64,000 nt of DNA from Planctomycetota bacterium (GTDB lineage: Bacteria > Planctomycetota > UBA8742 > UBA2392): contig JAOSKM010000003.1 in assembly GCA_027493625.1 (NCBI GenBank), positions 599,028 through 663,027 of the forward strand. The letters are read 5' to 3'. The notes beneath the pieces were generated by a model. The model made no database searches and was not told the DNA's origin. It saw nothing but the letters and a program-made list of their open reading frames with translations. This document shows, piece by piece, positions 9,815-62,282 of this stretch. Position 1 is the first letter of the stretch. Each line of letters opens with the position of its first letter. A program made the translations under genes and the position numbers.

Positions 9815-9824
9815 CCTCTGAAAA

Positions 9825-46175: not shown

Positions 46176-46245
46176 TGGCAGGACGTGAGAGAGTCGAACT
46201 CCCCCGGCCGGCTTTGGAGACCGGCCCGGCCCCGGGCCCCGTCCT
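46176..46245 (-). pseudogene. degenerate tRNA-like element (70 nt, T-arm and acceptor recognisable, no clean anticodon arm)
   Basis: ...GGGAGTTCGACTCTCTCACGTCCTGCCA with the 5' strand AGGACGG. Confidence 0.25.
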
Positions 46246-46246
46246 G

Positions 46247-46271
46247 TGGTTCGCAGGCAAGGATTCGAACC
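46247..46271 (-). repeat. partial 3'-end copy of tRNA-Gln (25/26 nt), att-like
   Basis: tggttcgcaggcaaggattcgaacc versus tggttcgcgggcaaggattcgaacc at 46400. Confidence 0.7.
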
Positions 46272-46399
46272 CCGAAACAGTCCAGCGGACTGTTTCGGAC
46301 CCGCAGCAGGCCGGCCAAAGCTCGCCGGAAGGGCGAGCGACGCCGGCCGTAAGCGGAGGGGTCGCCCTATCAGGCCGGCATTCCCTTCATCTAGAGGCT

Positions 46400-46474
46400 T
46401 GGTTCGCGGGCAAGGATTCGAACCTTGATTTCCTGGTTCAGAGCCAGGCGTCCTACCAGTTGGACGACCCGCGA
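46400..46474 (-). tRNA. tRNA-Gln(CTG)
   Basis: TCGCGGGTCGTCCAACTGGTAGGACGCCTGGCTCTGAACCAGGAAATCAAGGTTCGAATCCTTGCCCGCGAACCA. Confidence 0.8.
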
Positions 46475-46571
46475 GCGGTGTAGGGACACGCTGCCGCGTG
46501 TCCCTACGTTCCCGGTTTTCGCTTTCGAAGGACGGGGACAGTCCCGAACTTCCGAGACAGTCCCCTTCCGA

Positions 46572-47186
46572 TCAGATGCCCGACAGGATTGTCGGGCCCA
46601 CCCGGTCCTTCAGAAACGCCTTCCAGCTCTCCTGCAGCGCTACTCCACCAAGGATCAGCTGGTCGCGCGTCGGCTGGAACGGCTGGCGGCGCAGCGCCAG
46701 GCCGGCCTCAACCGGCGTGCGGTCGGCCTTCTGGTTATTGCAGCGGCCGCAGGCCAGCACGCAGTTCAGCCAGCTGGTGCCGCCGCCGCGCGAGAGCGGC
46801 TGCACGTGGTCGATCGTCATTGCGCGCTTGTGCACGAAAATGCCGCAGTACTGGCACTGGCCGTTGTCGCGCTCGAACACGCCGCGGCGCGAGTAGGGCA
46901 CGCCGGTGTTGGGGTAGCCGGCGAAGCGGGCGAGTGTGATGACCTCCGGCTTGCGCACCTGCAGATGCGCCGTGCGGATGTAGTCGTGCTCGATTACATG
47001 CGCATCGGCCGGCACGGCCTTCTCGCTCAGCCACTGGGCCCAGTCGAACAGCTGGTAAGTCTCCGGGCACACGACGCGCGCGCGGCCGCGGAAAACCAGT
47101 GTCAGGGCCTGCTTGACGACCACGGTGGTGATCGGCTGCCACACGCGGTTGAGTGTCAGCACACGCTCGAGTTCAACACGCGTCAT
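46572..47186 (-). CDS. HNH endonuclease embedded in the tRNA array
   Basis: GQCQYCG...MTIDHVQPLSRGG...NCVLACGRCNNQKADR HNH motif; start MTRVELERVL within ORF 46572..47336. Confidence 0.8.
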   Translation of the reverse strand: MTRVELERVLTLNRVWQPITTVVVKQALTLVFRGRARVVCPETYQLFDWAQWLSEKAVPADAHVIEHDYIRTAHLQVRKPEVITLARFAGYPNTGVPYSRRGVFERDNGQCQYCGIFVHKRAMTIDHVQPLSRGGGTSWLNCVLACGRCNNQKADRTPVEAGLALRRQPFQPTRDQLILGGVALQESWKAFLKDRVGPTILSGI

Positions 47187-47202
47187 ACAGCCTCCTTTCA
47201 GG

Positions 47203-47253
47203 GTCAGGGTCAGGCTCAATTTCGGCCGGCACGGACGAAATTGTGCCTGACCC
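47203..47253. repeat. long hairpin at the HNH gene 5' end; related copy at 48813..48848
   Basis: gggtcaggctcaatttcg gccggcacgga cgaaattgtgcctgaccc. Confidence 0.6.
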
Positions 47254-47267
47254 TTTTGAGCGTTCGT

Positions 47268-47341
47268 TTGGTAGCGGCGGCCGGAATCGAACCGGCTGGG
47301 TTGGGCGTATGAAACCCACCCGCGTCCAACGCGCACCGCAG
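47268..47341 (-). tRNA. tRNA-like, possible tRNA-Met(CAT); poor acceptor and D-arm, may be a pseudo-tRNA
   Basis: Good T-arm/3' acceptor GCCGGTTCGATTCCGGCCGCCGCTACCA and anticodon arm TGGGT-TTCATAC-GCCCA. Confidence 0.3.
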
Positions 47342-47344
47342 TGA

Positions 47345-47424
47345 TGTTTGGGCGATTGGGTGAATGTGACCTTCACCTATCGAAGGGAAAGCGGTGCTTT
47401 CCCTTCGATACAATCGCTTCGCGA
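47345..47424 (-). ncRNA. conserved spacer element with a covarying hairpin, immediately 3' of tRNA-Lys; homolog at 48076..48154
   Basis: accttcacctatcg-[aagggaaagc ggtg gctttccctt]-cgatacaatcgcttcgcgattgg. Confidence 0.4.
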
Positions 47425-47498
47425 TTGGTCCGCCCGGCGGGACTTGAACCCGCATCTGACCGGGTAAGAACCGGCCGCTCTGCATTGAGCTACAGGCG
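47425..47498 (-). tRNA. tRNA-Lys(CTT)
   Basis: TCGCCTGTAGCTCAATGCAGAGCGGCCGGTTCTTACCCGGTCAGATGCGGGTTCAAGTCCCGCCGGGCGGACCA; two G-U pairs in the acceptor stem, short D-loop. Confidence 0.7.
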
Positions 47499-47502
47499 AA
47501 TA

Positions 47503-47576
47503 GTGGAGCCGCTGGTGGGAATCCAACCCACGTCTCACCGTTACGAAGGGTGGGTCCTTGCATTGGACGACAGCGA
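47503..47576 (-). tRNA. tRNA-Thr(CGT), array copy, unlike the host tRNA-Thr at 27952
   Basis: GTCGCTGTCGTCCAATGCAAGGACCCACCCTTCGTAACGGTGAGACGTGGGTTGGATTCCCACCAGCGGCTCCA. Confidence 0.65.
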
Positions 47577-47635
47577 CGTAGGGGCCGCCCTGTGTGGCGG
47601 CCCGGCGAGAGGGCACATGGGCCCGCCCCTGCAGA

Positions 47636-47709
47636 TTGGACCCCAGTGAGTGAATCGAACACTCGTCTCTTCTTTGTAAGAGAAGCGTCTTGCCATTGGA
47701 CGAACCGGG
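47636..47709 (-). tRNA. tRNA-Val(TAC)
   Basis: CCCCGGTTCGTCCAATGGCAAGACGCTTCTCTTACAAAGAAGAGACGAGTGTTCGATTCACTCACTGGGGTCCA. Confidence 0.75.
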
Positions 47710-47710
47710 G

Positions 47711-47781
47711 GTCGCGATGACAGGACTCGAACCTGCGTTCTCCTGCTCCCGAAGCAGGCGTCCTTCCCTGGACCACATCGC
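47711..47781 (-). tRNA. tRNA-Pro(CGG), CCA not encoded, abuts tRNA-Val
   Basis: CGCGATGTGGTCCAGGGAAGGACGCCTGCTTCGGGAGCAGGAGAACGCAGGTTCGAGTCCTGTCATCGCGA. Confidence 0.75.
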
Positions 47782-47788
47782 GTTGTGT

Positions 47789-47863
47789 TTGGTCGGCTCG
47801 GCCGGAATCAAACCGGCGTTTCGGCTTTCGGAGAGCCGCGTCCTGTTCCCTGGACGACGAGCC
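47789..47863 (-). tRNA. tRNA-Arg(CCG)
   Basis: CGGCTCGTCGTCCAGGGAACAGGACGCGGCTCTCCGAAAGCCGAAACGCCGGTTTGATTCCGGCCGAGCCGACCA; perfect stems. Confidence 0.8.
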
Positions 47864-47920
47864 GGAAAGGGGTCTGGCTCCGCGCAGCGGTGCCTGACCC
47901 CTTTCCGGCGGTCGCCGCGA

Positions 47921-47995
47921 ATGGCGAGCGTACGGGGATTCGAACCCCGACCGTCTGGTTGAGAACCAGAAGTCCTTGCCGTTAGACGATACGCC
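47921..47995 (-). tRNA. tRNA-Glu(CTC)
   Basis: GGGCGTATCGTCTAACGGCAAGGACTTCTGGTTCTCAACCAGACGGTCGGGGTTCGAATCCCCGTACGCTCGCCA. Confidence 0.8.
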
Positions 47996-48000
47996 CGAAG

Positions 48001-48075
48001 CTGGCGACCCCACGGGGAGTTGAACCCCGACCTTCCCGGAGACAACGGGAAATCATAGCCGTTAGACCATGGGGC
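48001..48075 (-). tRNA. tRNA-Asp(GTC)
   Basis: GGCCCCATGGTCTAACGGCTATGATTTCCCGTTGTCTCCGGGAAGGTCGGGGTTCAACTCCCCGTGGGGTCGCCA. Confidence 0.7.
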
Positions 48076-48154
48076 CATGCCTTGGATGAGCTGTGGCAAC
48101 CTTCACCTATCGCGGGCAGAGCAGTGCTCTGCCCGCGATACATTCGCTGCGCGA
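48076..48154 (-). ncRNA. conserved spacer element with a covarying hairpin, 3' of tRNA-Ile
   Basis: accttcacctatcg-[cgggcagagc agtg ctctgcccgcg]-atacattcgctgcgcgaatgg; the stem sequence differs from the 47345 copy but pairing is preserved. Confidence 0.4.
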
Positions 48155-48228
48155 ATGGTAGAGACACGCGGAATCGAACCACGATCTGCCGGTTATCAAC
48201 CGGCTGCTCTGCCATTGAGCTATGTCTC
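48155..48228 (-). tRNA. tRNA-Ile(GAT)
   Basis: AGAGACATAGCTCAATGGCAGAGCAGCCGGTTGATAACCGGCAGATCGTGGTTCGATTCCGCGTGTCTCTACCA. Confidence 0.8.
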
Positions 48229-48234
48229 TGCAGG

Positions 48235-48306
48235 GCTGGCTCGGCAGGACTCGAACCTGCATCGCAGACTTCGCACGCCTGTATCCTTCCGGTTAGACGA
48301 CGAGCC
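48235..48306 (-). tRNA. tRNA-like, anticodon possibly GCG (Arg); no encoded CCA, G at position 32
   Basis: TGGCTCGTCGTCTAACCGGAAGGATACAGGCGTGCGAAGTCTGCGATGCAGGTTCGAGTCCTGCCGAGCCA. Confidence 0.35.
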
Positions 48307-48399
48307 ATTGGTTGTTTGCGCCAACGGCCGCTCATGCAGAGCCGCGCCCATGTGCCGGGATCGGATGGCCTGCCATGAGCGGGCCGAAGGCGAGTGAAA

Positions 48400-48473
48400 T
48401 GGTAGACCGGCTGGGATTTCAACCCAGACTGCACGCTTGCAGGGCGTGTGTGCTCGCGTTGACACTACCGGCC
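48400..48473 (-). tRNA. tRNA-like (anticodon arm CACGC-CCTGCAA-GCGTG, TGC?); mismatched acceptor, probable pseudo-tRNA
   Basis: Good T-arm and CCA; the 5' acceptor strand GGCCGGT does not pair with 3' CCGGTCT. Confidence 0.25.
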
Positions 48474-48533
48474 CGTAGCGCAGGCGCCCCGCCTGCACCG
48501 GCCGGGGCGCCTCGCCCCCGGCGGTTGGTTCGT

Positions 48534-48608
48534 TGGAGCCCCCGGGCGGAATCAAACCGACCGTCTTCTGAATGGCAATCAGAGATTCTGTCACTGAACT
48601 ACGGAGGC
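48534..48608 (-). tRNA. tRNA-Gly(GCC)
   Basis: GCCTCCGTAGTTCAGTGACAGAATCTCTGATTGCCATTCAGAAGACGGTCGGTTTGATTCCGCCCGGGGGCTCCA. Confidence 0.7.
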
Positions 48609-48720
48609 AAGCGGCGGCAAAGCCGCCTTGAGAATTGCGCCCCCGCCCAGGCGGGGGCGTGTACTGACTCAGCACCGTTGTCAAAGAACTGGCCTGCCCG
48701 CCATAGCCTTGGCGAAGGCG

Positions 48721-48794
48721 GGTGGAACAGCCTGGACTCGAACCAGGATCTTCCGGTTTTCAGCCGGACGCTCTGCCCGTTGAGCTACCGATCC
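48721..48794 (-). tRNA. tRNA-Phe(GAA), 3' tail ACCC
   Basis: GGATCGGTAGCTCAACGGGCAGAGCGTCCGGCTGAAAACCGGAAGATCCTGGTTCGAGTCCAGGCTGTTCCA. Confidence 0.65.
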
Positions 48795-48812
48795 GTTCTC
48801 CCGCCATCGGGA

Positions 48813-48848
48813 GGGGGTCAGGCACAATTTCGTTCCGAAATTGAGCCA
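48813..48848. repeat. hairpin related to 47203..47253, flanking the 5' side of the tRNA array
   Basis: ggtcaggcacaatttcg ttc cgaaattgagccagacc. Confidence 0.55.
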
Positions 48849-49139
48849 GACCCCAAGCTGGGTGCAGGCGCAGAGTCAAACTGCCCCTCCGCGGTCACAA
48901 CGCGGCGTGCTTTCGCTACACCAACCCGCACATGAATTCCCCAAACGAAAGCGGGGACCCCGCATGGAGTCCCCGCCGCGTAAAACCGGGCATTTCAGCC
49001 CCGCGGTGGACTCCTCAATTCGCGATCATGGCCCGCTTCCGGCCGTGGACCGCGCAGACTCGCCTGGATACCTCGCTTCGACATGACTCTGCTTTCTGGC
49101 TCAACCTGCTTCGTTCGGTACCACACAGATACACCATGC

Positions 49140-49175
49140 ATATTGACACGTCAATACTATTCTTGACGTGTCAAT
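49140..49175. promoter_or_regulatory. AT-rich perfect palindrome with TTGACA-like hexamers; candidate promoter/operator for leftward transcription into the tRNA array
   Basis: ttgacacgtcaa tactattc ttgacgtgtcaa. Confidence 0.45.
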
Positions 49176-49223
49176 ATAAACGCGGTTGCCGGCCGCGCGG
49201 TTTCAAAAAAACTGCCGGCGCTT

Positions 49224-49634
49224 CTACTGGCGGCGCCGGCGACCCGTCAGGAATCCGCCTCCTCCTCCGATCAGCCCGCCCAGGATCAGCCCCAGCACGC
49301 CCTCGAGGTAGCTGTCCTGCGCCCGGGCGCGCTCCAGCTCGCCCTTGGCGGTTTCGAAGGCGTTGCGGGTCTGCTCGAACTTCAGCTCGCGGCTGCGGCG
49401 CTCGTCCTCTGCTGCCTGCAGCGCGGCCAGCGCCGCCTGCACGCGGTCGCCTTCGCCTTCCTTCAGCGCCTCGATGTACGCGCCGCGCGTTTTCTCGGCC
49501 ACTTCCATGGCGTCGCGCAGCTCGGCGCCGGCTTGCTCCATGGCGTCGCGGGTGCGCTCGGCGGTTTCCAGGGCGTACTGCAGGCTGCTGCAGCCCGCCA
49601 GCACAACAAACAACAGGGGGATGACGTACTTCAT
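49224..49634 (-). CDS. lipoprotein with coiled-coil and C-terminal TM segment (unimolecular-spanin-like architecture)
   Basis: MKYVIPLLFVVLAGC lipobox; C-terminal GVLGLILGGLIGGGGGFLTGRRRRQ. Confidence 0.45.
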   Translation of the reverse strand: MKYVIPLLFVVLAGCSSLQYALETAERTRDAMEQAGAELRDAMEVAEKTRGAYIEALKEGEGDRVQAALAALQAAEDERRSRELKFEQTRNAFETAKGELERARAQDSYLEGVLGLILGGLIGGGGGFLTGRRRRQ

Positions 49635-49658
49635 GGGGAACTCCTTTCGGGATGGGTG

Positions 49659-49877
49659 TCAGCGGGTTTCCAGCACGGCCAGGCGCTCGGCGTGTTCGCT
49701 GCTGGCGCGATACAGCTCACGGATGTCGTCGCGCTGCAGCTCGGACTGCTTGGCCAGCGCGTCCACCACGCCGGCCAGCTTCAGCACCGCGTTGTTCAGT
49801 CGCAGGCACACGCCGATCAGCCCGATGCCGATCGCGCCGATCCACGCGCTGGCCACGCTGATGATCACGGCTTCCAT
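49659..49877 (-). CDS. small membrane protein (72 aa), holin-like
   Basis: N-terminal TM MEAVIISVASAWIGAIGIGLIGVCL plus charged C-terminus; ATGA coupling to the upstream ORF. Confidence 0.4.
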   Translation of the reverse strand: MEAVIISVASAWIGAIGIGLIGVCLRLNNAVLKLAGVVDALAKQSELQRDDIRELYRASSEHAERLAVLETR

Positions 49878-50134
49878 TACCGGCCTCCCAGCAGTGCGAT
49901 GTCTTCGGCGCTGGCGCCCAGGGCCAGCAGGCGTTGCTCGGCGGCGAACACCCGGTCGCGCTTCGCCAGCTCGCTCCGCAGGCGCTCGGCCTCCGCGCGC
50001 GCGTCCGTGTTGATGGCGGCGCGGAACTCAACCAGCAGCGAGGGCCAGGCCTGCTCGAAGTCAAACCCCGGCTCGAAGCTGCGCGCCGTCAGTACCAGGT
50101 TCAGGAGTTGGGTTGCCGCTGCCTGCCAGTCCAT
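49877..50134 (-). CDS. hypothetical protein (85 aa)
   Basis: ORF in operon context. Confidence 0.3.
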   Translation of the reverse strand: MDWQAAATQLLNLVLTARSFEPGFDFEQAWPSLLVEFRAAINTDARAEAERLRSELAKRDRVFAAEQRLLALGASAEDIALLGGR

Positions 50135-50143
50135 TGGATTTCC

Positions 50144-53100
50144 TCAGGTTGGAGTGCCGATCACCAGCAGGCGGAACGCGACACCGCTCGCGTTCCAGGC
50201 GCCGTTGGTGCTGTTGATTGTCAGGGTTTGCGCGCTGCCGGCGCCCGGGGCGTTCAGGCTCCAGGTCGCCCAGTGAGAGCCGTCGGCGTCGTACTTCAGG
50301 TTGATCGTGCCCGTGCCGCCCATCGGCCAGCTTGAACTGGGGCCGCTGCCGCTGCCGTCGCGGCACTGGTAAATGAAGTGCGCGCGGTTGATGCCGGTCA
50401 GCGCCACCGTCTTGCCGCTCACGCCGCTGCCGCTGTACTCGACCACGCTGGCGACCAGGTTGGCGCCGGCCGGATGCAGGTCCTCGAACTTCGCGAACTT
50501 CGCCACCCCCGCGTCATCGATCACCAGCAGCTTGTAGCCGTCAGTGACGGCCGAGAGCTGGCCGAGCCCCGCCACCGTGGCCAGCAGGTGCTGCAGTTGC
50601 GACTTGCGCCCGACCAGGCTGGTGCGGACCATGAATTCATCGGTGGGGCTTAGCGTGGAGTCTGAGGTGGCGTTATTGATCAGCTCGTTGATGGCGCCGT
50701 CTGCGCTGCTCGCGGCGGTTCCGCCGTTGGCCAGCGACAGCGGCAGGGCGGGCAGCTCGCTGCTGTAGGCCAGCTTGTTCGCGCCGTGGTAGAGGCGCGA
50801 GTCGCTGCTCTTGATCCAGGCCGTGTTCGCCGCCACGCCGCCCGGATTGGCGCTCTGCGGCGTGAGTTCAAGCCCCGTGGGGTCGATCAGCCCGGCCACG
50901 CCCAGCTTGCCCCCGACTTCCAGGTTGCCGTCCGTACGCAGGGTGTTTGATCCGTCGCGATAAAGCTCGACGTCCTTGCCGAATGCGATGCCCTCGTCGT
51001 CACCGGCCCCCAGCCGCAGCGCCTGGCTGTCGCCGAAGTTCGCATCCGCCGGCCCGACCTGCAGGTGACCCGTAACGTGCACGCCGCGCGACAACCCGGC
51101 CGGCGTTGACGCGTCAACATCTCGCGGCAGCAGTTCAAGATGACCGCCCGATGTGGCAAGGCGCACGTCCCAGCCCGAGTGCACACGGCCGGCGGCGAAG
51201 TGCGGGTGGCCGAACGCCAGCACCACTTCGGGGTGCAGCGCGAGGAACGTCTGGCGCGCCCCCGAATCGAGTTGCGCGGCGGGCATGGCGACGCCCGGCG
51301 GCAGGTAGATGCAGCCGCCGCCGAGGCTGGGGTCGGGTACGCCGTTCGCTTCGCCGGCCCAGCCTTGGCTCTTGATGCTGGGGCCGGGGTAGGGCGTTTC
51401 GCGCTCCTGCCCGCGTTCGCTGGGCGCCGGCACCCAGTCGTGGCTGGGCGCCCACAGCTCGTACTCGCTGACCGCCGGCCGAATGTCGTACGGCACGCAC
51501 AGCATGGTCGGCACGTAGGGCGGCGGCGGGTCCTCGACCGGCGGCGCGGGCGGCGGGCCGATCGGCGGCTTCCAGGTGGGCGGGATCTCGGGCAGGAAAG
51601 GCACCCGGTACTGGATCTTCCAGCGCCCTTCGCGTTGCGTGTGGTTCCAGGGGTGGCGCTCGGCGGCGTCGTACTTGAGCTGCGCCTCATAGGGCGGCCA
51701 GGGCGGGATGCCGCCCGCAAATGGCTCAGCGTAGAACTTCACGGGCGCGTCGTGCACCGCGTCGCCCGGGACCTTGAAGAACGCGTCCGTGCTGATGTGC
51801 CCCGCGCTCTCGCGGTACACGCCGTCCTTCACGGCTGTGCCGTACAGGTGTTTGCTGCACGCGTCGGCGTCGGCCAGTATCGGCCCTCCCTGCAGCGTAG
51901 CCGTGAGGCGGCCGAGCGAGCGCCCGTCGGTTTCCGCGAACAGCCCGCGCCCGAGCACTTCCGGGTTGGCGGTGTCGCCTTCGCGCAGGTTCAGCGCCGG
52001 GGCCCAGCCGCCGTCGCGGGCGCCTTCCTGCCGGTGCGCGGGGCTGAGCGCCAGCACGCTCAGGAACTGCAGCCCGCCGCGCCGGCCCAGGCTTGACCCG
52101 TCAAGGTCATAGACCAGGCTGGAAGATGCACCCGGCTCAGGCCCACGTGCGTCGGCAACCAGCGGCCCGCAATCCACGAAGTGCGGCTCGTCGCCAAGGC
52201 TCACAATCAGGCCGCGCATAGCCTGCGGCAAAACGTGGCGGGCTTCGAACAATTGTTTGGGCGCAATCTCCGCGTGGCGTTCGTCCGGCGCCAGCACGCG
52301 CAGCCGGCCGGAGTCTACGACCTCCACGCCGGCGACGAAGAACCAGCGCCCGAACTTCGCGGCGTCGCTGCTTTCGAGAAAGAACGGAAACGCCAGCGGG
52401 CCCGGGTGGCGCAGCTCCAGCGCGCCTGTGTCGTCGCGGCGGTGCAGCGCTTCCACCGCGAGCACGCTTTCGCCTTCGGGTGCTTCGCCGCTCGCGCGCA
52501 GCACCAGCGGCCCCGCACGGAAAGCGTTGATCGGCTGGTGCAGCCCGCTAGGTGTCGGCGCCGACGAGCGCGAACCCGCCAGGCGCGGAGCGCCAGCGTC
52601 AGGCGCGGCCGGCAGAACATGCGCGCGCTCGCTGATGGTGCTGACCAGCCCATCGGGGCCGGCCTCGATAACCACACGTTCGACCGCACCCTGGGCCAGC
52701 GCTTCGCAGACACCTGCCAGCTTCGCCACGCGCCGTGAATGCACGTGTTGGTGAACGGCGGCAAGTTCGGAGGCCGCCGCGCGCAGGGCGCCGGCGTTCA
52801 CCACCGCGCCGCTTTTGTACAGCGCAACCAGGTGCTGCGCGTGCAGCGTGATCGGCTCACCTTCGCCGCCGGGGAAGTCCGCCGTAAAAGGCGGGCGCGT
52901 CGCAACGTGCGCAACGCGCAGGCTCAGCTTCGCGGCGCCGCTCAGGCGGCGATCCTGCAGCGTGGGATCGTCGGCGCCGCCGCCTGGCTGAAGCAGCGCA
53001 AACGGCGGCCGCGGCAGGTAGACCAGGCCGGCGTCGGCCTCCAGCTCAAAACCCTCAATCGGCTCGGCAACCGTCTCTTCAATACTGCGCTGCGCCGGGT

Positions 53101-54061
53101 GTTTCGGCGCCGTGTTCAGTGGCCGTGCGATGTGTGCCGTGAGCGACGGCGGCTGAAAGGTGCCGTCCTCATTCAATCCGCCCACGGGCAGCCAGGGCAG
53201 CGTCACCCCGCGCGCGCGGAACAGCCGGAACGCGTAGCGCTTCAGCGCCGCCAGGCGCGCAGCACCGTTGGGAGCCGTGGCGGGCAGCAGCGTCTCGAAG
53301 CCGCCGTCGCTGAGGCAGGCCTGGCGCGCGACGTGCTCGCTGACTCCCCACTGCGCAAGCACCTCGGCCAGTGGCTGCAGCGCGCCGCTGTCGTCCGGTA
53401 GCACCGGCTCGAAGTCGGTCAGCTCGGACAGCTCCAGTGCAGGGCCGCCGACCACCGTCACGCTCGAGGGCCGCTGTGCCTGCGAGGCACTGATCTCGAT
53501 CAGCCGTGTTTCATTCAGCGCCGCAGTTGTCTCGGCTGAAGCAACTGCAACCTGGCCCTCGTCATTTACCGTGCAGCTCAGACCCACGCTTGCCAGCAGG
53601 GCCTCGACGGCATGGCCAAGATCGCCGTTGGCGCGCAGGTTGACCGGCGCCGCCGTGCCGCCCGGCAGGCGCGGCGCTTCTGTCGCGTCCAGGCCGGCGG
53701 CCTCGAACAGGCGTTCGATCGCGGCCTGGGCGCTCAGTGGCTCGCCCTCGCGCCAGGCCGTGCCGTCGCCGACGGGCGCGTTGATTTCGCATCGCACCGG
53801 CCGGCGCCAGCTTTCGCGCAGATCGCTGCCGGTCACGCGCACGCGGCCGTCACCCAGCGCTTCGACACGCCGGGCGGTGAACTGGCTGAAGGTGCGCCGT
53901 GTTTCGGCGTCCGCAACGTGCAGCACCACCGGCCCCGTCTGCGCGATGGCGCTGGGCGGCAATACGGCTTCAAAGCTGGAAGCGCTGCCGCCGCGCCGCA
54001 GCTCGATGCGCAGGCCGAGCAGCGATTGCCCGTTGAGTGTGGCTGTGACGTGCTCGTTCAT
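50144..54061 (-). CDS. phage tail fibre / host-specificity-like protein (1305 aa)
   Basis: Large size; ...ELYRDGSNTLRTDGNLEVGGKLGVAGLIDPTGLELTP... fibre-like motifs. Confidence 0.55.
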   Translation of the reverse strand: MNEHVTATLNGQSLLGLRIELRRGGSASSFEAVLPPSAIAQTGPVVLHVADAETRRTFSQFTARRVEALGDGRVRVTGSDLRESWRRPVRCEINAPVGDGTAWREGEPLSAQAAIERLFEAAGLDATEAPRLPGGTAAPVNLRANGDLGHAVEALLASVGLSCTVNDEGQVAVASAETTAALNETRLIEISASQAQRPSSVTVVGGPALELSELTDFEPVLPDDSGALQPLAEVLAQWGVSEHVARQACLSDGGFETLLPATAPNGAARLAALKRYAFRLFRARGVTLPWLPVGGLNEDGTFQPPSLTAHIARPLNTAPKHPAQRSIEETVAEPIEGFELEADAGLVYLPRPPFALLQPGGGADDPTLQDRRLSGAAKLSLRVAHVATRPPFTADFPGGEGEPITLHAQHLVALYKSGAVVNAGALRAAASELAAVHQHVHSRRVAKLAGVCEALAQGAVERVVIEAGPDGLVSTISERAHVLPAAPDAGAPRLAGSRSSAPTPSGLHQPINAFRAGPLVLRASGEAPEGESVLAVEALHRRDDTGALELRHPGPLAFPFFLESSDAAKFGRWFFVAGVEVVDSGRLRVLAPDERHAEIAPKQLFEARHVLPQAMRGLIVSLGDEPHFVDCGPLVADARGPEPGASSSLVYDLDGSSLGRRGGLQFLSVLALSPAHRQEGARDGGWAPALNLREGDTANPEVLGRGLFAETDGRSLGRLTATLQGGPILADADACSKHLYGTAVKDGVYRESAGHISTDAFFKVPGDAVHDAPVKFYAEPFAGGIPPWPPYEAQLKYDAAERHPWNHTQREGRWKIQYRVPFLPEIPPTWKPPIGPPPAPPVEDPPPPYVPTMLCVPYDIRPAVSEYELWAPSHDWVPAPSERGQERETPYPGPSIKSQGWAGEANGVPDPSLGGGCIYLPPGVAMPAAQLDSGARQTFLALHPEVVLAFGHPHFAAGRVHSGWDVRLATSGGHLELLPRDVDASTPAGLSRGVHVTGHLQVGPADANFGDSQALRLGAGDDEGIAFGKDVELYRDGSNTLRTDGNLEVGGKLGVAGLIDPTGLELTPQSANPGGVAANTAWIKSSDSRLYHGANKLAYSSELPALPLSLANGGTAASSADGAINELINNATSDSTLSPTDEFMVRTSLVGRKSQLQHLLATVAGLGQLSAVTDGYKLLVIDDAGVAKFAKFEDLHPAGANLVASVVEYSGSGVSGKTVALTGINRAHFIYQCRDGSGSGPSSSWPMGGTGTINLKYDADGSHWATWSLNAPGAGSAQTLTINSTNGAWNASGVAFRLLVIGTPT

Positions 54062-55195
54062 CTAAACCTCCGGCGCCAGCTCGACCATGGCCGCGCGCCC
54101 GCGCGAAACGTAGCGCCAGCTGGTGACCCAGCGGCGGTCGGCGGGCAGGCCCCCGTGCGGCAGTGAGTACTCGACGTGCCGCTCGATAAGCTCGGCGGCG
54201 TAGCGCGGCGCGGGCGGGCTGACGTGGCGGCCGTCGCCGACCGCGCTGCCCTGCTGAATGATCTCCGTCTGCGGCGCGCCCACCTGCTGGCGATATGCTG
54301 GCAGCGCGGTGTCGAGCAGCGGGTGGTCGATAACGCGCCGCGTGGTGGTGAACGAAAGCGTTTCGGTCAGCGCCAGGCTGCCGGCCTCTTCCAGCAGTTC
54401 CACGAACTCGAAATCAACGCGCCGCGTGAACGGGTTCGCCGCGATGCGCGTCGAGACCAGCCGCTCACCGGCCGGGCGCAACTCCAGCGCGCGGGCCCGG
54501 GCCGAGGCGCCCACGAAGAAGCCGCTCAGGGCCCGCACCGTGCGGCCTTCGGCATCTGTGAACTCGCTGGCGACATAGTGGCCGTCGTCCACGCCGCCGG
54601 GCAGCGGCGTGAACACCTGCTCATCTTCGACTTCGTACTCGAGCGCGGGTACCACCGTGTCGCGCGTGACCACCGTGCGCACGCGCCGCCAACCGGCGCC
54701 CAGCACGGGCTGCAGCAGCGCCTCGAAGTCGGCGGGGTTCTCGTTGCGGCGCAAGATTGCCAGCCCCTTGGTGACCAGCCTGGCGGGCTGGCCGGCGGCC
54801 GTCGCCTCGCGCACCGTGTACTGGTGCGACTGCACGGCGCTCGCGGACTCCTGCAACGTGGCGCGGAATTCCAGCGTCACCCCGCGCCGGTTGTGGGCCT
54901 GGCCGGGCACGCGCTCGCGCTCCGTGACCGCGTGCAGCGTGGGGCCGAGCCGGCAGTCCGCGACAGTCAGCACGCGCACGTCCGTGCCGTCGGCCTGCAG
55001 CTTCAGGTCGCCGCCGCTTCCCTGCGCGTCGCGCAGGCTCTGCAAGGCGGATTCCAGGGCGGCGGGCGTGGCTGCTTCGACTTCCAGCTCGATCAGCCAG
55101 CGCTCGGTCACCTCTGGTGACTTGCCCGTGCGGCAGACGTCCAGGCTGGTAGCGGCGCCGAGTGCGGCGCCGTTAAAATGCAGTGCGAGTGTCAT
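54062..55195 (-). CDS. phage virion-associated protein, hypothetical (377 aa)
   Basis: ORF coupled to the tail-fibre gene. Confidence 0.45.
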   Translation of the reverse strand: MTLALHFNGAALGAATSLDVCRTGKSPEVTERWLIELEVEAATPAALESALQSLRDAQGSGGDLKLQADGTDVRVLTVADCRLGPTLHAVTERERVPGQAHNRRGVTLEFRATLQESASAVQSHQYTVREATAAGQPARLVTKGLAILRRNENPADFEALLQPVLGAGWRRVRTVVTRDTVVPALEYEVEDEQVFTPLPGGVDDGHYVASEFTDAEGRTVRALSGFFVGASARARALELRPAGERLVSTRIAANPFTRRVDFEFVELLEEAGSLALTETLSFTTTRRVIDHPLLDTALPAYRQQVGAPQTEIIQQGSAVGDGRHVSPPAPRYAAELIERHVEYSLPHGGLPADRRWVTSWRYVSRGRAAMVELAPEV

Positions 55196-55197
55196 GG

Positions 55198-56508
55198 CTA
55201 CTCCGCCAGGGTGTCCGAGATGGTGGGCGTGCCGGACGACGGCAGGGCGATCTCCAGGCGCTCGCGCGCGAACACCTGGAACGCGCCGGCCTCGTCACTG
55301 GTGCTGTCCAGCGTGAAGCGGTCGGCGACAGGCGCAGTCTGCGGGGCCGCGGCGCCTTGAAAGATCGCCAGCCGCAGGCCCGCATGGGGCACTTCGGTCG
55401 CGGGCGCCAGCGACACGCCGTCCAGGTACACCGCGCCGTTGAAGGTCGCGCCGCAGCGGATGCGCACCTTCACCTTGTTGGGGAAGCTGCCGCGCGGCAG
55501 GTATTGCAGGCCGCCGAGGTGCAGCCACTGGCCCGTGGGTGTTGACCCGTCAATGGTGAGCGTCAGCGCCGAGGCCGCACCGTCGATCAGCAGGTCCAGC
55601 TTCACGTCGCCGCCGGAGTAGCTGCCGACGTACACCCAGGCGCCCAGGGCCCAGAAACGGCCGGATTCCAGGGGCGGGTCGCGATCGGCCAGGTCCTGCT
55701 GCAACTCGCCGGACGTGGCGCCGTTGCCGGTGATCTTCAGTGATCCGCCGCCGAAGAGCTTGGTGGCGGTATCGCGGCTGAACGCGCTGCCGCCGCTGAT
55801 CACGCTCCAGTGGTCCAGCACGCCCGCGGTATCGTCCTCGAAGGCGCCGTCCGTCACCACGTTGCGCGCGTCCGTGATCGCCCCGTAGGTCACCGGGATC
55901 GCGCGGGTGCTGACCGGCGGGCCGACTTCCGGCCGAATGCGGAACTCTTCCTGCCCCACGGGCACGCGGTGGCGCGGGTTGTCGCGCACGCACTCGATGC
56001 AGATGCGCTGGTTCACGATGCGCTCGTCATCGACCAGGTTCTCAGCGGCGTCCACGGTCTGCTTGCTGACGTAGCAGGCCGCGTCGCCGGCGTTGGCGAC
56101 GTCCGCGCTGACTGCACCCAGGCTGACCGCGTTGGCGGCCACGCTCTCGGCGTCGGCCAGCATGGCGCGTTGCAGCTCACGCAGCAGCTCGGCGCGAGAA
56201 GCGCCCTCGGAATTCAGCTCGGCGGCCAGGGCATCGCGGATCCAGGCGTCGAGGGACTGCTGCAGCTGCGCGCCCCAGCCGCGGGCCACGCGGGCGGCGT
56301 CGGCCAGCACGCCCACCGCGTCAAGGCGGTCGCGCTCGGCGGGTGCGTCATTGAGCACATCCACGAACTCTTCGCGCAGCTTGTCCAGGCTGCGGAAAAC
56401 CTCGCCGCCGCTGCTGAAGCTCAGGTTGCGCTCGGCCAGGTTGTCGAGCTGCGTGAAGGCGCGGGCGTACTGGCCCAGCACCTGGAAGATCGTCGTGTAG
56501 TTCGGCAT
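55198..56508 (-). CDS. phage virion-associated protein, hypothetical (436 aa)
   Basis: ORF in a co-directional cluster. Confidence 0.45.
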   Translation of the reverse strand: MPNYTTIFQVLGQYARAFTQLDNLAERNLSFSSGGEVFRSLDKLREEFVDVLNDAPAERDRLDAVGVLADAARVARGWGAQLQQSLDAWIRDALAAELNSEGASRAELLRELQRAMLADAESVAANAVSLGAVSADVANAGDAACYVSKQTVDAAENLVDDERIVNQRICIECVRDNPRHRVPVGQEEFRIRPEVGPPVSTRAIPVTYGAITDARNVVTDGAFEDDTAGVLDHWSVISGGSAFSRDTATKLFGGGSLKITGNGATSGELQQDLADRDPPLESGRFWALGAWVYVGSYSGGDVKLDLLIDGAASALTLTIDGSTPTGQWLHLGGLQYLPRGSFPNKVKVRIRCGATFNGAVYLDGVSLAPATEVPHAGLRLAIFQGAAAPQTAPVADRFTLDSTSDEAGAFQVFARERLEIALPSSGTPTISDTLAE

Positions 56509-56514
56509 GGGAAC

Positions 56515-57177
56515 CTAGCTGCGCAGGATCTGCGCGGTGAAGGGTTGGACCACCTGCCCGGCCACTGACACGCGTACGCGCGGCAGGCTCATCCGCGCCT
56601 CGCAGCGCCAGCGCGCGGCCAGGTACGCCGAGGGGTCGTCGGCGCGGCTGCTGAGGTGGTCATAGAGGAAGAAAAGGGCGTAGCGCGCTGTGACGTCGGC
56701 CAGCGGCTGCAGGCTGTCGGCGCGCCAGCCCTGCGGGAAGCGGGCGTTCAACAGGGCGTCCAGCACGCGCTTGGCGCGGGCCAGCGGGTCGGCGAAGCCG
56801 GGGCGGTTCGCAAACTGGCCGTTCGCAAGAAACGCGCTGATGCCCTTGTGCAGTGCGGCGAGGTCGTCGTCATCGGCGTAGAAGGCGTCGATCACGGCCT
56901 CGAAGGGCGTCGCGTCCGTGATGCGCACGCTGCCGCTGAGGCCGCTGGCGTTCTGGGCCGCGAGGCTGACGTCGCCGGTGTCGGCATCGAGCGTGCCTTG
57001 GGCCACCATGGTTGAGCGCGCGGCGTCGCTGAACAGGCTGACGGTGAAGTTGCCGCCGGCCTCCGTGATGCGCGTGTACAGGCGCCCGTGGTCGGTGTTG
57101 GCGCGGCTGGCGCCGTCGAGCACCCAGCGCGAGAACACGCCGTGCGGGTCGTCATGTGTGGTTACGTATTCGAGCAT
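56515..57177 (-). CDS. phage virion-associated protein, hypothetical (220 aa)
   Basis: ORF in a co-directional cluster. Confidence 0.45.
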   Translation of the reverse strand: MLEYVTTHDDPHGVFSRWVLDGASRANTDHGRLYTRITEAGGNFTVSLFSDAARSTMVAQGTLDADTGDVSLAAQNASGLSGSVRITDATPFEAVIDAFYADDDDLAALHKGISAFLANGQFANRPGFADPLARAKRVLDALLNARFPQGWRADSLQPLADVTARYALFFLYDHLSSRADDPSAYLAARWRCEARMSLPRVRVSVAGQVVQPFTAQILRS

Positions 57178-57245
57178 GGTTCACTTTGGGGAAGGCGCCG
57201 GGGCGGACAGGCCTGCCCGCCCCGGCCGGGGACATCCTGCGCGGC

Positions 57246-58382
57246 CTAGCTGGTGGCCAGGTTGGTGATGACGCCATGGCCGCCGTCACCGCCGTTCAGG
57301 ATTTCGAGGGTGTACTCGCCGATCAGCTGCGCCTTGCGGAAGTCGCCGCTTTCGGCCAGGGGCTTCACGAAGAAGCTGCGCCCCTGCAGGGGCATGACCT
57401 GCAGCTTGTCGAGATCCAGCAGCAGGATCTTGTCCGCGGGCACCCAGCGGCTCAGGATCACGCGCTGCACGCCGAAGTCGGACTCGTAGACATCCACCAC
57501 GTTGCGCAGGGCTGCGCTCTCCGGCTCGTAGCGCCGGCTGCTCTGGATGAAGCTGCTGATCTTGCGTTTCTGGAAGCCGTTGCAGACGATGGCCGTGGGG
57601 CGCCCGCCCTTCTCCCACACGTTGCGCAGGCTGGCGTTCAGCAGCGCTTCATCGAGCGCCGCGGCGCCGGCGTCGTCCACGCTGCCGGTGATGAACTGCA
57701 GCAGCCCGCCCATGGTGCGGCGCACGGAAGCGCTGCCCTGCGGGTTGGCGGCCGCCTTGAAGCCGCAGATCACCGTCTGCTCGAGGCTGCGCATCAGCTC
57801 GCGCAGGCGCTGGATCACCTGGTAGTCGAACTCGCGCTCCACGGCGTGCAGGCCGACGGCATCCATGCTGCCGCTGATCGTCACGGTCTCGGTGAAGATC
57901 TGGCTGAAGTTTTCCTTCCGCACGCGGGCGCGGTAGTTGGCGGCCGCGGCGTCTTCGCCTTCGAGTGCCGCGTGGCCGATCACGCTGACTTTCTGGTTGT
58001 CGACCACGGCCTCGGCCGTGCTGCCGCCGTAGCCGCGCGTGACGGTGAGTGTGTTGGTGCTGATGCCCGTGACCTGCAGGACTTCGTCGCTGCCCTCGGG
58101 GCGGATGATGTCGCCGACGCGGAAGACGCTGCCGTCGTCAACGACCCAGCTGGTGGCGACGTCGTCGTAGCCGGCGCCGTTGTTGACGGCGCTGAAGTTG
58201 GGGTTGAGCTGGTCTTCGAACCACTCGTGGCGCGTCGACTTCGCGCTGTAGCGCGGGCTGCCGATGGCATCGAGCAGCGGTGTGTCGAAGGGCGAGATCA
58301 GTCCGACGAGGTCGCTGACGTCGTCGACCAGCTCGGGCAGGCTTGCGCCCGCGTCGTAGGTTGCTTTGCCGGTGAAACTCAT
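57246..58382 (-). CDS. major capsid-like protein (378 aa)
   Basis: Size and position after scaffold-like and portal-like genes; no motif-level proof. Confidence 0.45.
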   Translation of the reverse strand: MSFTGKATYDAGASLPELVDDVSDLVGLISPFDTPLLDAIGSPRYSAKSTRHEWFEDQLNPNFSAVNNGAGYDDVATSWVVDDGSVFRVGDIIRPEGSDEVLQVTGISTNTLTVTRGYGGSTAEAVVDNQKVSVIGHAALEGEDAAAANYRARVRKENFSQIFTETVTISGSMDAVGLHAVEREFDYQVIQRLRELMRSLEQTVICGFKAAANPQGSASVRRTMGGLLQFITGSVDDAGAAALDEALLNASLRNVWEKGGRPTAIVCNGFQKRKISSFIQSSRRYEPESAALRNVVDVYESDFGVQRVILSRWVPADKILLLDLDKLQVMPLQGRSFFVKPLAESGDFRKAQLIGEYTLEILNGGDGGHGVITNLATS

Positions 58383-58463
58383 GGGGTTTGCTCCTTATGG
58401 GGTGGATGGGATGTTCGGGGTGCGTGAGGGTCCGACTTCGCCAAGGCTTCGTCGGACAGGAAA

Positions 58464-60271: not shown

Positions 60272-60318
60272 CCCCTTGCGGCCGATGGAGTCGGATTTCG
60301 GTCAAAACGAGGCGAAAC

Positions 60319-62281: not shown

Positions 62282-62282
62282 C

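Follow-up and report, generated by a model that had tools for sequence, protein, structure and literature searches.

The linkage between HNH endonuclease genes, long accessory tRNA arrays (L-arrays) and RtcB is already on record (PMC8421152, PMC10272220). In Anabaena/Nostoc sp. PCC 7120, the HNH protein All8564 (WP_010999558.1) is encoded on the plasmid pCC7120delta. Its gene is co-oriented with a long accessory array, in which 24 tRNAs were found, and lies about 200 nt upstream of it with its own mapped promoter. There, rtcB is linked or co-regulated (PMC8421152, PMC10272220); inhibition of translation induced all8564 jointly with the trn operon and rtcB (PMC8421152), and the gene belongs to the TrcR regulon (PMC10272220). 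In mycobacterial arrays, HNH is the most widespread coding sequence (PMC5966550). One example is WP_084259957.1 of the M. intracellulare plasmid NZ_CP084587.1, a protein of 164 aa encoded within a co-oriented array of 28 tRNAs, directly after tRNA-Met. The mycobacterial genes are plasmid- or phage-borne and clearly horizontally mobile. Members of the family were termed 'homing endonucleases', with a possible part in the spread of arrays (PMC8421152, PMC5966550). SegB of T-even phages is likewise encoded among tRNA genes, and its activity was demonstrated: by cleaving within tRNA genes, it causes tRNA loci to recombine and to be amplified (PMC13096335). It has the GIY-YIG fold, is unrelated to HNH and occurs in phages only. 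An HNH enzyme that cleaves tRNA is PtuB of Septu (PMC13096335). IshB, of the IscB/IsrB OMEGA lineage (Altae-Tran 2021), is described in two later summaries as a protein of ~180 aa with PLMP and HNH domains and without RuvC (PMC10734217, PMC11610941). The PLMP domain of IsrB is an RNA-contacting fold (PMC9581776).

The window analysed here, a stretch of 64,000 nt, contained genes for ArgRS, sensor kinases, glycosyltransferases and a subtilase and showed 91-96% identity to a contig of a Planctomycetota MAG. By this content it is identified as part of a Planctomycetota chromosome and not of a phage. A phage origin was ruled out by the housekeeping and regulatory genes together with the synteny with planctomycete MAGs. 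The only phage trace, located upstream in the window, was a head-module remnant with an SU10-type capsid gene and a scaffold-like gene.

Seventeen co-oriented tRNA genes were detected at 46177-48931 by ARAGORN and Rfam combined (Table 1). As the sequence-only reading had proposed, an HNH gene lies within this array. It is separated by 86 nt from the preceding tRNA-Met and by 97 nt from the tRNA-Gln that follows. That reading had also called such nucleases typical of phage tRNA regions, which holds for the family, common in phage arrays, but not for this chromosomal locus. The array tRNAs reached Rfam scores of 35-69 bits versus 71-72 bits for the stand-alone tRNAs. Identity between the array tRNA-Thr(CGT) and the stand-alone Thr(CGT), the sole isoacceptor pair comparable within the window, was ~57%. 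On this one pair and the scores, the array is assigned to the accessory L-array type, whose tRNAs are divergent, redundant copies of isoacceptors encoded elsewhere. The Rfam search of the array returned tRNAs only and no group I/II intron signal at E<=0.1, leaving the 'intron-like invasion' suggested earlier unsupported. Just downstream of the HNH gene, an insertion of 152 nt was present, and its borders were marked by a duplicated stretch (25 nt) of the T-arm/acceptor end of tRNA-Gln.

Table 1. [quoted passage not shown]
Feature	Position	Strand	Basis
tRNA-Trp(CCA), last gene of the array, non-canonical	46177..46247	-	ARAGORN; sub-threshold tRNA-Sec match in Rfam (34.5 bits)
tRNA-Gln(CTG), directly downstream of HNH	46400..46474	-	ARAGORN and Rfam (67.4 bits)
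Two stable hairpins straight after the stop codon, 46530-46569 (with GACAGTCCC motifs) and 46480-46507	46480..46569	-	Together -55 kcal/mol, z=-6.2
CDS, two-domain HNH nuclease of the L-array-associated HNH family	46572..47186	-	ORF and translation, Pfam, ortholog, dN/dS
HNH (beta-beta-alpha-metal) nuclease domain, codons 100-160, with CxxC...CxxC zinc site and D126-H127...N141...N150	46707..46889	-	Pfam, homolog alignment, solved relatives
N-terminal beta-beta-alpha-beta... domain, codons 1-98, with conserved LxLNRxWQP motif; possibly PLMP/IF3-N-like	46893..47186	-	AF2, homologs, weak fold and profile hints
Ribosome-binding site AAGGAGG, 5 nt before ATG	47191..47197	-	Read directly from the sequence
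5' hairpin between tRNA-Met and HNH start	47206..47254	-	23-nt arms, 91% complementary, -36.6 kcal/mol, z=-4.9
tRNA-Met(CAT), directly upstream of HNH, non-canonical	47273..47342	-	ARAGORN, without detection in Rfam; conserved in the clade with compensatory changes
Upstream part of the array: His Phe Gly Ala Arg Ile Asp Glu Arg Pro Val Thr(CGT) Lys	47426..48931	-	ARAGORN, Rfam; order kept in relatives
Terminator/attenuator-like hairpin in the leader, between promoter region and tRNA-His	48950..48977	-	Consensus match only
Probable regulated promoter/operator: two TTGAC(A/G)(C/T)GTCAA palindromes, 20 bp apart, ~210 nt upstream of the first tRNA	49140..49177	-	Conserved tandem pair

The HNH ORF comprised 204 aa, with ATG at 47186 and TGA at 46572-46574, coordinates identical to those of the sequence-only reading. 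Its start codon agreed with the call in a 96% identical ortholog (P0001). The HMM search that had been proposed as a check matched PF01844 (HNH) at 58.7 bits (cutoff 21.4, E=6e-16). HNH_5 and HNH_4 matched as well, and PF14279 scored 44.9 (cutoff 27.5); all matches were of HNH type, RuvC being absent. PHROG 16726 'HNH endonuclease' matched residues 7-193 (E=2e-26). Residues D126, H127, N141 and N150 and the cysteines C111, C114, C146 and C149 were invariant across 52 homologs. The protein belongs to the HNH superfamily by a profile match above the curated threshold and by the catalytic His, the metal-binding Asn/His and the zinc site, all of which were intact. The HNH domain scored best against IscB/Cas9d models, and its nearest solved relatives were the Gme HNH nickase and the HNH domains of Cas9, Cas9d and IscB. 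Among solved structures, the best sequence match for the HNH core was the nicking endonuclease Gme HNH of Geobacter metallireducens (PDB 4H9D, E=2.6e-8). It differs from the window protein in that it consists of a single domain (~110 aa), lacks the N-terminal domain and has no known association with tRNA arrays. The ORF is predicted to encode an intact nuclease composed of an N-terminal domain of ~95 aa and a Cas9/IscB-type HNH domain with a Cys4 zinc site. In the JGI annotation, the HNH family is labelled McrA. Some mycobacterial array HNHs are mis-annotated as 'Cas9', and likewise planctomycete homologs.

The N-terminal domain had no match in Pfam. It was modelled by AF2 with a pLDDT of 82-95 and is conserved in the Anabaena and mycobacterial homologs; specific to the clade of the window were a 6-aa insertion and a longer linker compared with All8564. 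Homology to a solved structure was sought and rejected: the domain profile found nothing among PDB sequences, and Foldseek against PDB and BFVD gave nothing significant. Eight IscB/IsrB structures were among the top 32 Foldseek matches and two IF3 structures among the top 45, all with E>=0.8. The hhalign match to the PLMP domain of DtIsrB was gapless and in register but sub-significant, with a probability of 25%. A search of the N-terminal profile against 5.8 billion proteins recovered solely proteins that combine this domain with HNH, and no IscB/IsrB. The fold hints suggest that the N-terminal domain may be PLMP-like.

BLASTP aligned the protein to All8564 with 33% identity (E=1e-26), and hhalign supported homology over the full length including the N-terminal domain (probability 99.9%). 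The mycobacterial protein WP_084259957.1 belongs to the same family (hhalign probability 99.8%, again including the N-terminal domain), although its N-terminal domain is shorter. By full-length homology, the long co-oriented array and the accessory nature of the tRNAs, the gene is classified as a planctomycete member of the L-array HNH family, together with Anabaena All8564, the mycobacterial plasmid-array HNH and many phage-array HNHs. Whereas all8564 is placed upstream of its array on a plasmid of another phylum, the window gene lies inside the array, between tRNA-Met and tRNA-Gln, on a chromosome. Unlike the mobile mycobacterial genes, it is vertically stable.

For the distribution of the family, the best-scoring 80 of >550 loci per collection were sampled, which is not a random sample. 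In this set, a tRNA was present within 300 bp of HNH at 25 of 67 planctomycete loci (37%) and 18 of 70 viral loci (26%); some of the 'viral' IMG/VR contigs look like host fragments (e.g. L094). The tRNAs were co-oriented with the HNH gene in 354 of 355 planctomycete and 303 of 313 viral cases, with up to 34 and 41 tRNAs per locus, respectively. Conserved slots were His|HNH|Trp in many Planctomycetia and Met|HNH|Gln in the clade of the window. About 60% of the planctomycete homologs had no tRNA nearby, for example in Isosphaera and Alienimonas, where the gene stands among ordinary genes far from tRNAs. These homologs were conserved and intermixed in the tree with array-embedded ones, and the action of the protein would therefore not need linkage to an array. 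The family was found in phages, plasmids and chromosomes of at least three phyla. The closest homolog outside the clade was located on a phage-like 167-kb contig, and a tmRNA was found beside HNH in the phage-like relative. The locus extends the company of the two-domain HNH family with tRNA arrays to a third phylum and many large phages.

Within the clade, the HNH gene was present at the array in 13 of 13 retrievable loci. The synteny of array, HNH, ADH or VIT-VWA, response regulator (RR) and HisK was kept down to 63% protein identity, and the position of the HNH gene remained stable while the flanking genes co-diverged to saturation. The dN/dS of the HNH gene was 0.17-0.41, and its dS was similar to that of neighbouring genes. 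Because of the retained synteny, these substitution rates and the presence at every locus, the gene is regarded as vertically inherited with the array under purifying selection, in the fixed slot Met|HNH|Gln. The tRNAs beside it varied in the clade, with the arrangements Met|HNH|Gln-Trp, Met|HNH|Trp, Met-Gln|HNH and Met-Trp|HNH. A metagenome scan of limited sampling found no HNH-less Met-Gln junction, and the single-gap pattern gave 0 matches. A scan with the 3' half of tRNA-Met returned 40 loci, mostly unrelated housekeeping Thr-Met...Trp loci. One locus in which Met is directly followed by Gln (L214) was considered as an empty site and turned out to be an unrelated AT-rich array. In relatives, RtcB-RtcA adjoin the array, with Ro60 in addition in one of them (L001), in agreement with the trn/all8564/rtcB regulon known from Anabaena (PMC8421152, PMC10272220); RtcBA was absent from the array flank in the window itself.

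Promoters of planctomycetes are poorly described. The tandem pair of palindromes upstream of the array was found in the same place in all clade loci, and the motif TTGAC(A/G)(C/T)GTCAA was likewise frequent in other parts of the window. The palindrome was rejected as the mark of a regulon common to Rtc and Ro60: Ro60 of L001 is preceded by a single imperfect site and RtcB by none. Between the tRNAs and the HNH ORF, sites resembling promoters or terminators were not found. A stable 3' stem-loop between the HNH gene and the next tRNA was conserved across planctomycete arrays and some viral ones. Because of the lack of such sites before the ORF, the conserved dual palindrome and the conserved 3' hairpin, we infer that the tRNAs and the HNH gene share a transcript, which starts in the palindrome-controlled promoter region located ~210 nt ahead of tRNA-His. 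RNase P/Z-type processing would then remove the flanking tRNA-Met and tRNA-Gln and free the HNH mRNA. The terminal hairpins, above all the 3' stem-loop conserved family-wide, would protect the excised mRNA.

Most likely, the HNH protein introduces nicks or breaks into DNA within or close to tRNA genes and thereby stimulates homologous recombination. As with SegB at the tRNA region of T-even phages, recombination would serve the maintenance, rearrangement and amplification of the array or, in the long term, its transfer. The HNH gene would then be kept by selection as a partner of the array and would not be invading empty sites selfishly. Activity at the DNA level is suggested because the HNH-adjacent tRNAs vary, the 152-nt insertion carries a tRNA-Gln duplication and SegB provides a precedent. 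The family has indeed moved between phages, plasmids and chromosomes at deeper time scales, so that the nuclease may promote recombination, a role argued by analogy to a GIY-YIG enzyme of unrelated fold. The rearrangements near the gene could also be ordinary tRNA-repeat recombination. The fixed slots and purifying selection over long vertical descent in planctomycetes argue for a nuclease that selection retains as part of the array system rather than for a passing parasite. As a whole, the explanation of an intact L-array HNH that is co-transcribed with the array and serves as its recombination-promoting, selected partner has about an even chance of being correct.

The default in the literature, proposed by the authors of PMC8421152 and PMC5966550 and shared by the sequence-only reading, is a classical free-standing homing endonuclease, a selfish gene that would cut HNH-less array alleles and thereby be copied into them along with neighbouring tRNAs. 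In its favour, homing nucleases typically have the HNH fold, the family is spread over phages, plasmids and chromosomes of at least three phyla, and a phage-like contig holds the closest homolog outside the clade. Population signs of active homing were not seen in the lineage. Presence/absence polymorphism was lacking among the clade loci, no empty site emerged from the metagenomes scanned with limited sampling, and the locus with its flanks was stable across deep divergence. Purifying selection and invariant catalytic residues left no visible degeneration cycle, slots were fixed across many Planctomycetia, and conserved stand-alone copies occur far from any tRNA, so that homing is considered unlikely here. 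The same stand-alone copies, among ordinary genes, would fit a generic cellular McrA-like HNH nuclease of repair or restriction, for which the tRNA operon is a convenient, strongly transcribed and tolerated insertion site without a functional tie. The McrA label of JGI agrees with this, and tRNA spacers do tolerate insertions, as their palindromes illustrate. However, linkage of 26-37% across three phyla plus phages is far above the ~1% estimated for a random gene from typical tRNA-locus density. Co-orientation reached ~99% in genomes and ~97% in viral contigs, and slots were conserved. With the prevalence of HNH among coding sequences of mycobacterial arrays (PMC5966550) and its co-regulation with the array in Anabaena (PMC8421152), a gene without any tie to the tRNAs is very unlikely.

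An alternative at the RNA level is a role in a translational-stress or RNA-repair module. In concert with the array tRNAs and the repair genes RtcB/RtcA/Ro60, the nuclease would have tRNA or pre-tRNA as its substrate, be it for processing, for quality control or to clear away tRNAs that are damaged or compete. It would account for RtcB-RtcA, and Ro60 in L001, directly beside the array in relatives, for the tmRNA beside HNH in the phage-like relative and for the stress induction of all8564 within the TrcR regulon (PMC8421152, PMC10272220). Cleavage of tRNA by PtuB (PMC13096335) and a PLMP/IF3-N-like N-terminal domain, RNA-contacting in IsrB (PMC9581776), would also be consistent with it. The nearest characterised relatives are DNA nucleases, however, the PLMP link was not significant and RtcBA was missing from the array flank in the window. 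Beta-beta-alpha-metal nucleases leave 5'-phosphate/3'-OH ends, and RtcB needs a 3'-phosphate or 2',3'-cyclic phosphate plus a 5'-OH; the products would thus be no RtcB substrates. An RNA-level role is fairly unlikely on balance. Highly improbable is an IshB-type OMEGA relative guided to nucleic acid by an omega-like RNA or an adjacent tRNA-derived RNA. Its architecture matches IshB as described in the literature (PMC10734217, PMC11610941) in size, two-domain layout and lack of RuvC. The IscB/Cas9d-like HNH domain, a possibly PLMP-like N-terminal beta-beta-alpha-beta unit, the IscB/IsrB structures among the top Foldseek matches (E>=0.8) and the in-register, sub-significant DtIsrB alignment point the same way. 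But the N-terminal domain measures ~95 aa versus ~55 aa in IshB, and its profile search recovered no IscB/IsrB. Neither an IS200/605 TnpA nor transposon ends were found at any locus examined, and the window gene has no IS200/605 context and no omega-RNA candidate. No conserved structured RNA was found upstream; the 5' spacers were short, variable and unstructured in most arrays, and the identity of the upstream tRNA varied.

Long accessory tRNA arrays are increasingly regarded as translational-stress or anti-defence devices, and HNH is the one protein gene that recurs with them. The family is a well-defined target for biochemistry, with a possible structural link to the IshB/IscB lineage. It is conceivable, though distinctly unlikely, that the protein serves not for homing but as the effector of the arrays, being a PLMP-like plus HNH (IshB-type) nuclease for which the structure of tRNA or pre-tRNA is the recognition signal. 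Host or damaged tRNAs, for example, might be removed or discriminated by the nuclease while the array supplies replacements. If so, the origin of IscB/Cas9 nucleases would be tied to tRNA biology, and the sole gene common to L-arrays of Planctomycetota, Cyanobacteria, Actinobacteria and phages would be explained.

The hairpins at both ends of the HNH gene, pointed out in the sequence-only reading, were real, and neither is a feature of a homing site. The 5' hairpin is one of several related spacer palindromes that occur in the array alone, with other copies at 47861-47909 and 48814-48854. It was unaligned in the 96% identical relative and had no conserved counterpart upstream of the HNH gene in other arrays. 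As a repeat of the array, it was rejected as an HNH-specific element or omega-like RNA. The GGGGACAGTCCCC repeats noted at the 3' end correspond to GGGGACAGTCCC at 46534 and GAGACAGTCCCC at 46554, both of them imperfect, which form the arms of a single hairpin at 46530-46569 and would represent a structure of the mRNA end. The pair of 12-mers GGGGACAGTCCC and GAGACAGTCCCC recurred at 19888 and 19904, and enrichment in the window was marginal, with 15 matches versus 7.9 expected.

The HNH gene recognised in the sequence-only reading corresponded to a minus-strand ORF of 204 codons (46572-47186) whose ATG follows an AAGGAGG site by 5 nt. It lay between tRNA-Met and tRNA-Gln in an array of 17 co-oriented tRNA genes (46177-48931, ARAGORN and Rfam combined), in the order His Phe Gly Ala Arg Ile Asp Glu Arg Pro Val Thr Lys Met, HNH, Gln Trp. 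An HMM search detected Pfam PF01844 at 58.7 bits (cutoff 21.4), and PHROG 16726 'HNH endonuclease' matched residues 7-193 (E=2e-26), so the presence of an HNH domain was confirmed. The protein comprised two domains, an N-terminal domain at residues 1-98 and a Cys4-zinc HNH domain at residues ~100-160. The catalytic residues D126-H127...N141...N150 were unchanged in an alignment of 52 homologs. The nearest solved relatives of the HNH domain were the Geobacter HNH nickase 4H9D and the HNH domains of Cas9, Cas9d and IscB; the best partial NCBIfam matches of the protein were IscB and Cas9d.

On tRNA sequence, the array is classed as accessory (L-array) type. Its tRNA-Thr(CGT) showed only ~57% identity to the canonical stand-alone tRNA-Thr(CGT) 19 kb away. 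Rfam scores of array tRNAs were 35-69 bits, Met and Trp falling under the threshold; two stand-alone tRNAs scored 71-72 bits. About 210 nt upstream of tRNA-His, two TTGAC(A/G)(C/T)GTCAA palindromes were found 20 bp apart. This tandem pair held the same position in every clade member, which suggests repressor control of the array. The 12-bp palindrome TTGACRYGTCAA was over-represented in the window, with nine matches where 0.39 were expected, a count attained in no shuffle, and only the tandem pair kept its position in relatives. Several copies fell within coding regions. Between tRNA-Gln and tRNA-Trp, a hairpin-rich insertion of 152 nt (46248-46399) was bounded by 25-nt, 96%-identical copies of the tRNA-Gln 3' end, comprising T-arm and acceptor (46247-46271 and 46400-46424). 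In the closest relative, L001, tRNA-Gln directly abutted tRNA-Trp. The insertion resembles a scar left by recombination or integration, or a small MITE.

The phage setting ascribed to the array was not borne out. The window is a Planctomycetota chromosome, encoding arginyl-tRNA synthetase, histidine kinases, response regulators, glycosyltransferases, a subtilase and a radical-SAM enzyme, and the array with its flanks was 91-96% identical to JAJVIO010000001.1, a contig from a Planctomycetota MAG. A segment of ~14 kb (49184-63329) was missing from the 96% relative, and RtcB-RtcA occupied that position in relatives. Besides the capsid, scaffold-like and synthetase genes listed in the table, it held unannotated minus-strand ORFs, one of them of 1305 aa. 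The segment may be the remnant of a prophage head/tail module beside the array.

Coordinates of features in the window and in related loci
Feature	Position	Remarks
SU10-type major capsid gene	57246-58382	274 bits; upstream of array, within ~14-kb segment
Scaffold-like gene	58464-58982	weak match
Arginyl-tRNA synthetase	60218-62281	in ~14-kb segment
tRNA-Met, non-canonical	47273-47342	ARAGORN call; missed by Rfam
tRNA-Trp, non-canonical	46177-46247	Rfam match to tRNA-Sec model only, below threshold
tRNA-Thr(CGT), non-canonical	47507-47577	Rfam 43.9 bits; missed by ARAGORN
TTGACRYGTCAA sites	19516, 38060, 49143, 49163, 51106, 52093, 55542, 58494, 60705	
5' hairpin of HNH gene	47206-47254	z=-4.9
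3' GACAGTCCC structure and second hairpin	46530-46569 and 46480-46507	z=-6.2
Spacer palindromes, first family	47369-47429, 48099-48159	
Spacer palindromes, second family	47206-47254, 47861-47909, 48814-48854	
RNA-repair genes directly ahead of tRNA array	L001 990-7546; L006 5464-7760; L007 6399-8679	RtcB and RtcA; Ro60/TROVE protein in L001
L010, phage-like contig	7810-9834	partial tRNA, tRNA-Lys, HNH, tRNA-Ile(TAT), full tmRNA (77 bits)

Across 1.84 billion cluster representatives, 1,350 clusters matched in a profile search at E<=1e-30. Linkage was counted in a non-random sample, the 80 best-scoring loci from planctomycete genomes and the 80 best-scoring from IMG/VR, each of >550 matches, keeping those flanked by 1 kb or more on each side. 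Within these, a tRNA lay <=300 bp from the HNH gene in 25 of 67 planctomycete loci (37%) and 18 of 70 viral loci (26%), although some 'viral' contigs, such as L094, are possibly host fragments; the chance expectation, reasoned from typical tRNA-locus density, is ~1%. In linked loci, 354/355 (genomes) and 303/313 (viral) tRNAs were co-oriented with the gene. tRNA-array linkage is a trait of the L-array HNH family. In many Planctomycetia the arrays were very large and the slot of the gene was fixed, '...Ala Ala Ser Arg Ser Arg His -~46 nt- HNH -~70 nt- Trp Thr Arg Arg Arg Cys', and phage contigs held the gene inside arrays of 20-41 tRNAs. A homolog 59% identical to the window protein was present on the phage-like 167-kb contig L010, where a Lar-like gene and another small HNH gene lay close by. 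The Pirellulales MAG SMAG_U8579 had two copies (L042 and L063), each beside a large tRNA array, with 19 and 16 tRNAs within the flanks retrieved. A neighbour-joining tree placed the window's clade with the phage-like contig and viral sequences. Array-embedded and stand-alone copies were intermixed in the main Planctomycetia clade; the linkage is therefore old and was repeatedly lost with the gene kept, for example in Isosphaera and Alienimonas.

Long 'L-arrays' were defined in seven phyla including Planctomycetes by Santamaria-Gomez et al. 2021, who linked cyanobacterial L-operons to rtcB and a conserved HNH gene, all8564, both induced together with the trn operon upon translational stress, and proposed that all8564 may have a SegB-like homing role (PMC8421152). 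Both all8564 and rtcB belong to the regulon of the TrcR repressor (PMC10272220). In mycobacterial arrays, HNH, at times annotated 'Cas9', was the most widespread CDS (Morgado and Vicente 2018, PMC5966550). Since this association is already published, the window locus is a new planctomycete member of it. Plasmid searches with tblastn retrieved the HNH genes of Nostoc/Anabaena PCC 7120 pCC7120delta and of a Mycobacterium intracellulare plasmid, with full-length homology in profile-profile comparison (probability 99.9% and 99.8%, respectively). The Anabaena gene lies 200 nt upstream of 24 co-oriented tRNAs, whereas the window's gene is inside its array; the mycobacterial gene lies within a 28-tRNA array directly after tRNA-Met, as in the window.

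Within the window's clade, orthologs from 96% down to 63% protein identity occupied the same array, with RtcB-RtcA upstream in several loci and a conserved downstream flank of ADH, VIT-VWA, response regulator and histidine kinase. The slot was Met, HNH, Gln(-Trp), with the local variants Met/HNH/Trp, Met-Gln/HNH and Met-Trp/HNH. DNA identity of the HNH gene to relatives (96%, 83% and 75%) exceeded that of the adjacent ADH gene (93%, 69% and 70%). Its dN/dS was 0.17-0.41 by a simple NG86 estimator at high GC, and its dS of 0.17 to the closest relative was in line with the 0.20-0.23 of its neighbours. The gene was present in 13/13 retrieved clade loci, and no HNH-less junction was recovered in two metagenome scans. 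The sole candidate, L214, was rejected as an unrelated AT-rich array. The conserved flanks, dN/dS, neighbour-like dS, presence in every retrieved locus and lack of recovered empty junctions do not resemble an active homing element cycling via invasion and decay. The gene encodes an intact member of the L-array HNH family, is under selection and occupies a fixed slot of a co-oriented accessory tRNA operon; it is inherited vertically in the clade, with deep mobility among phages, plasmids and chromosomes. The sequence-only reading is confirmed for an HNH nuclease in a tRNA array and partly supported in its interpretation: mobility holds for the nuclease family, and phage origin and active homing in this clade are not supported.

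The function of the L-array HNH family is now a well-posed question. The HNH gene would be co-transcribed with the array tRNAs, and its mRNA would be cut out of the transcript by tRNA processing; no promoter-like or terminator-like sites were found between the ORF and the flanking tRNAs in a scan of the window sequence. The nuclease may nick or cut tRNA-gene DNA and stimulate recombination that would maintain, rearrange, amplify or transfer the array. Circumstantial support comes from the tRNAs changing position among relatives, which are those adjoining the HNH gene, and from the 152-nt insertion with its tRNA-Gln-end duplication just downstream of it. Chihara et al. 2026 (PMC13096335) demonstrated for SegB, a GIY-YIG enzyme, that it cleaves within tRNA genes and drives amplification of the tRNA locus of T6 that depends on recombination. 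A classical homing endonuclease, compatible with the family's mobility, is unlikely given the clade's lack of invasion-and-decay signatures. The RtcB/RtcA genes ahead of the array in L001, L006 and L007 mirror Anabaena trn/rtcB co-regulation and would fit an RNA- or tRNA-level role together with the Rtc repair module, which we consider doubtful. HNH nucleases leave 5'-P/3'-OH ends that RtcB does not join, which argues against a cleave-and-reseal partnership. That a generic nuclease is merely parked in the tRNA operon is quite improbable.

An RNA-guided IshB is the least probable of these alternatives. IshB has been described with ~180 aa and PLMP and HNH domains without RuvC (PMC10734217, PMC11610941), an architecture with which the window protein agrees. 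PLMP is reportedly IF3-N-like (PMC9581776). The N-terminal domain was predicted as beta-beta-alpha-beta-alpha-beta (pLDDT 82-95) with the conserved motif LxLNRxWQP, which resembles PLMP (Anabaena homolog 'KNYLPL...RAIVLLVTGQA'); it had no match among Pfam families or PDB sequences. Among the top 45 Foldseek entries, eight were IscB/IsrB and two IF3, all sub-significant (E>=0.8), and hhalign against the authentic DtIsrB PLMP gave 32 gapless columns in the expected register at a sub-significant probability of 25%. HMM-level searches with the protein and its N-terminal domain found no IscB/IsrB for PLMP, and the loci examined showed no IS200/605 context and no omega-RNA candidate in spacers. Membership in IshB is therefore unproven.

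The hairpin reported at the 5' end of the HNH gene and the GACAGTCCC structure at its 3' end were both present and very stable. The 5' hairpin belonged to a palindrome family limited to array spacers, was not present in the corresponding spacer of the 96% relative, and 5' spacers were short and unstructured in most other arrays examined. Nearly all of the examined planctomycete arrays, and some viral arrays, had a stable stem-loop directly after the HNH stop codon (in spacers of 37-90 nt, -20 to -49 kcal/mol, z=-3 to -7). It would protect the 3' end of the HNH mRNA freed from the polycistronic precursor by processing of the downstream tRNA. Two very stable palindrome families (z=-5 to -7.7) occupied tRNA-tRNA spacers. 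They varied between close strains, the spacer upstream of the HNH gene in L001 holding the other family, which points to small palindromes that are mobile, or to elements of processing or stability. The exact 12-mer GGGGACAGTCCC, the motif found downstream of the HNH stop codon, formed a second tandem pair 16 nt apart at 19888-19915, within a glycosyltransferase ORF region.
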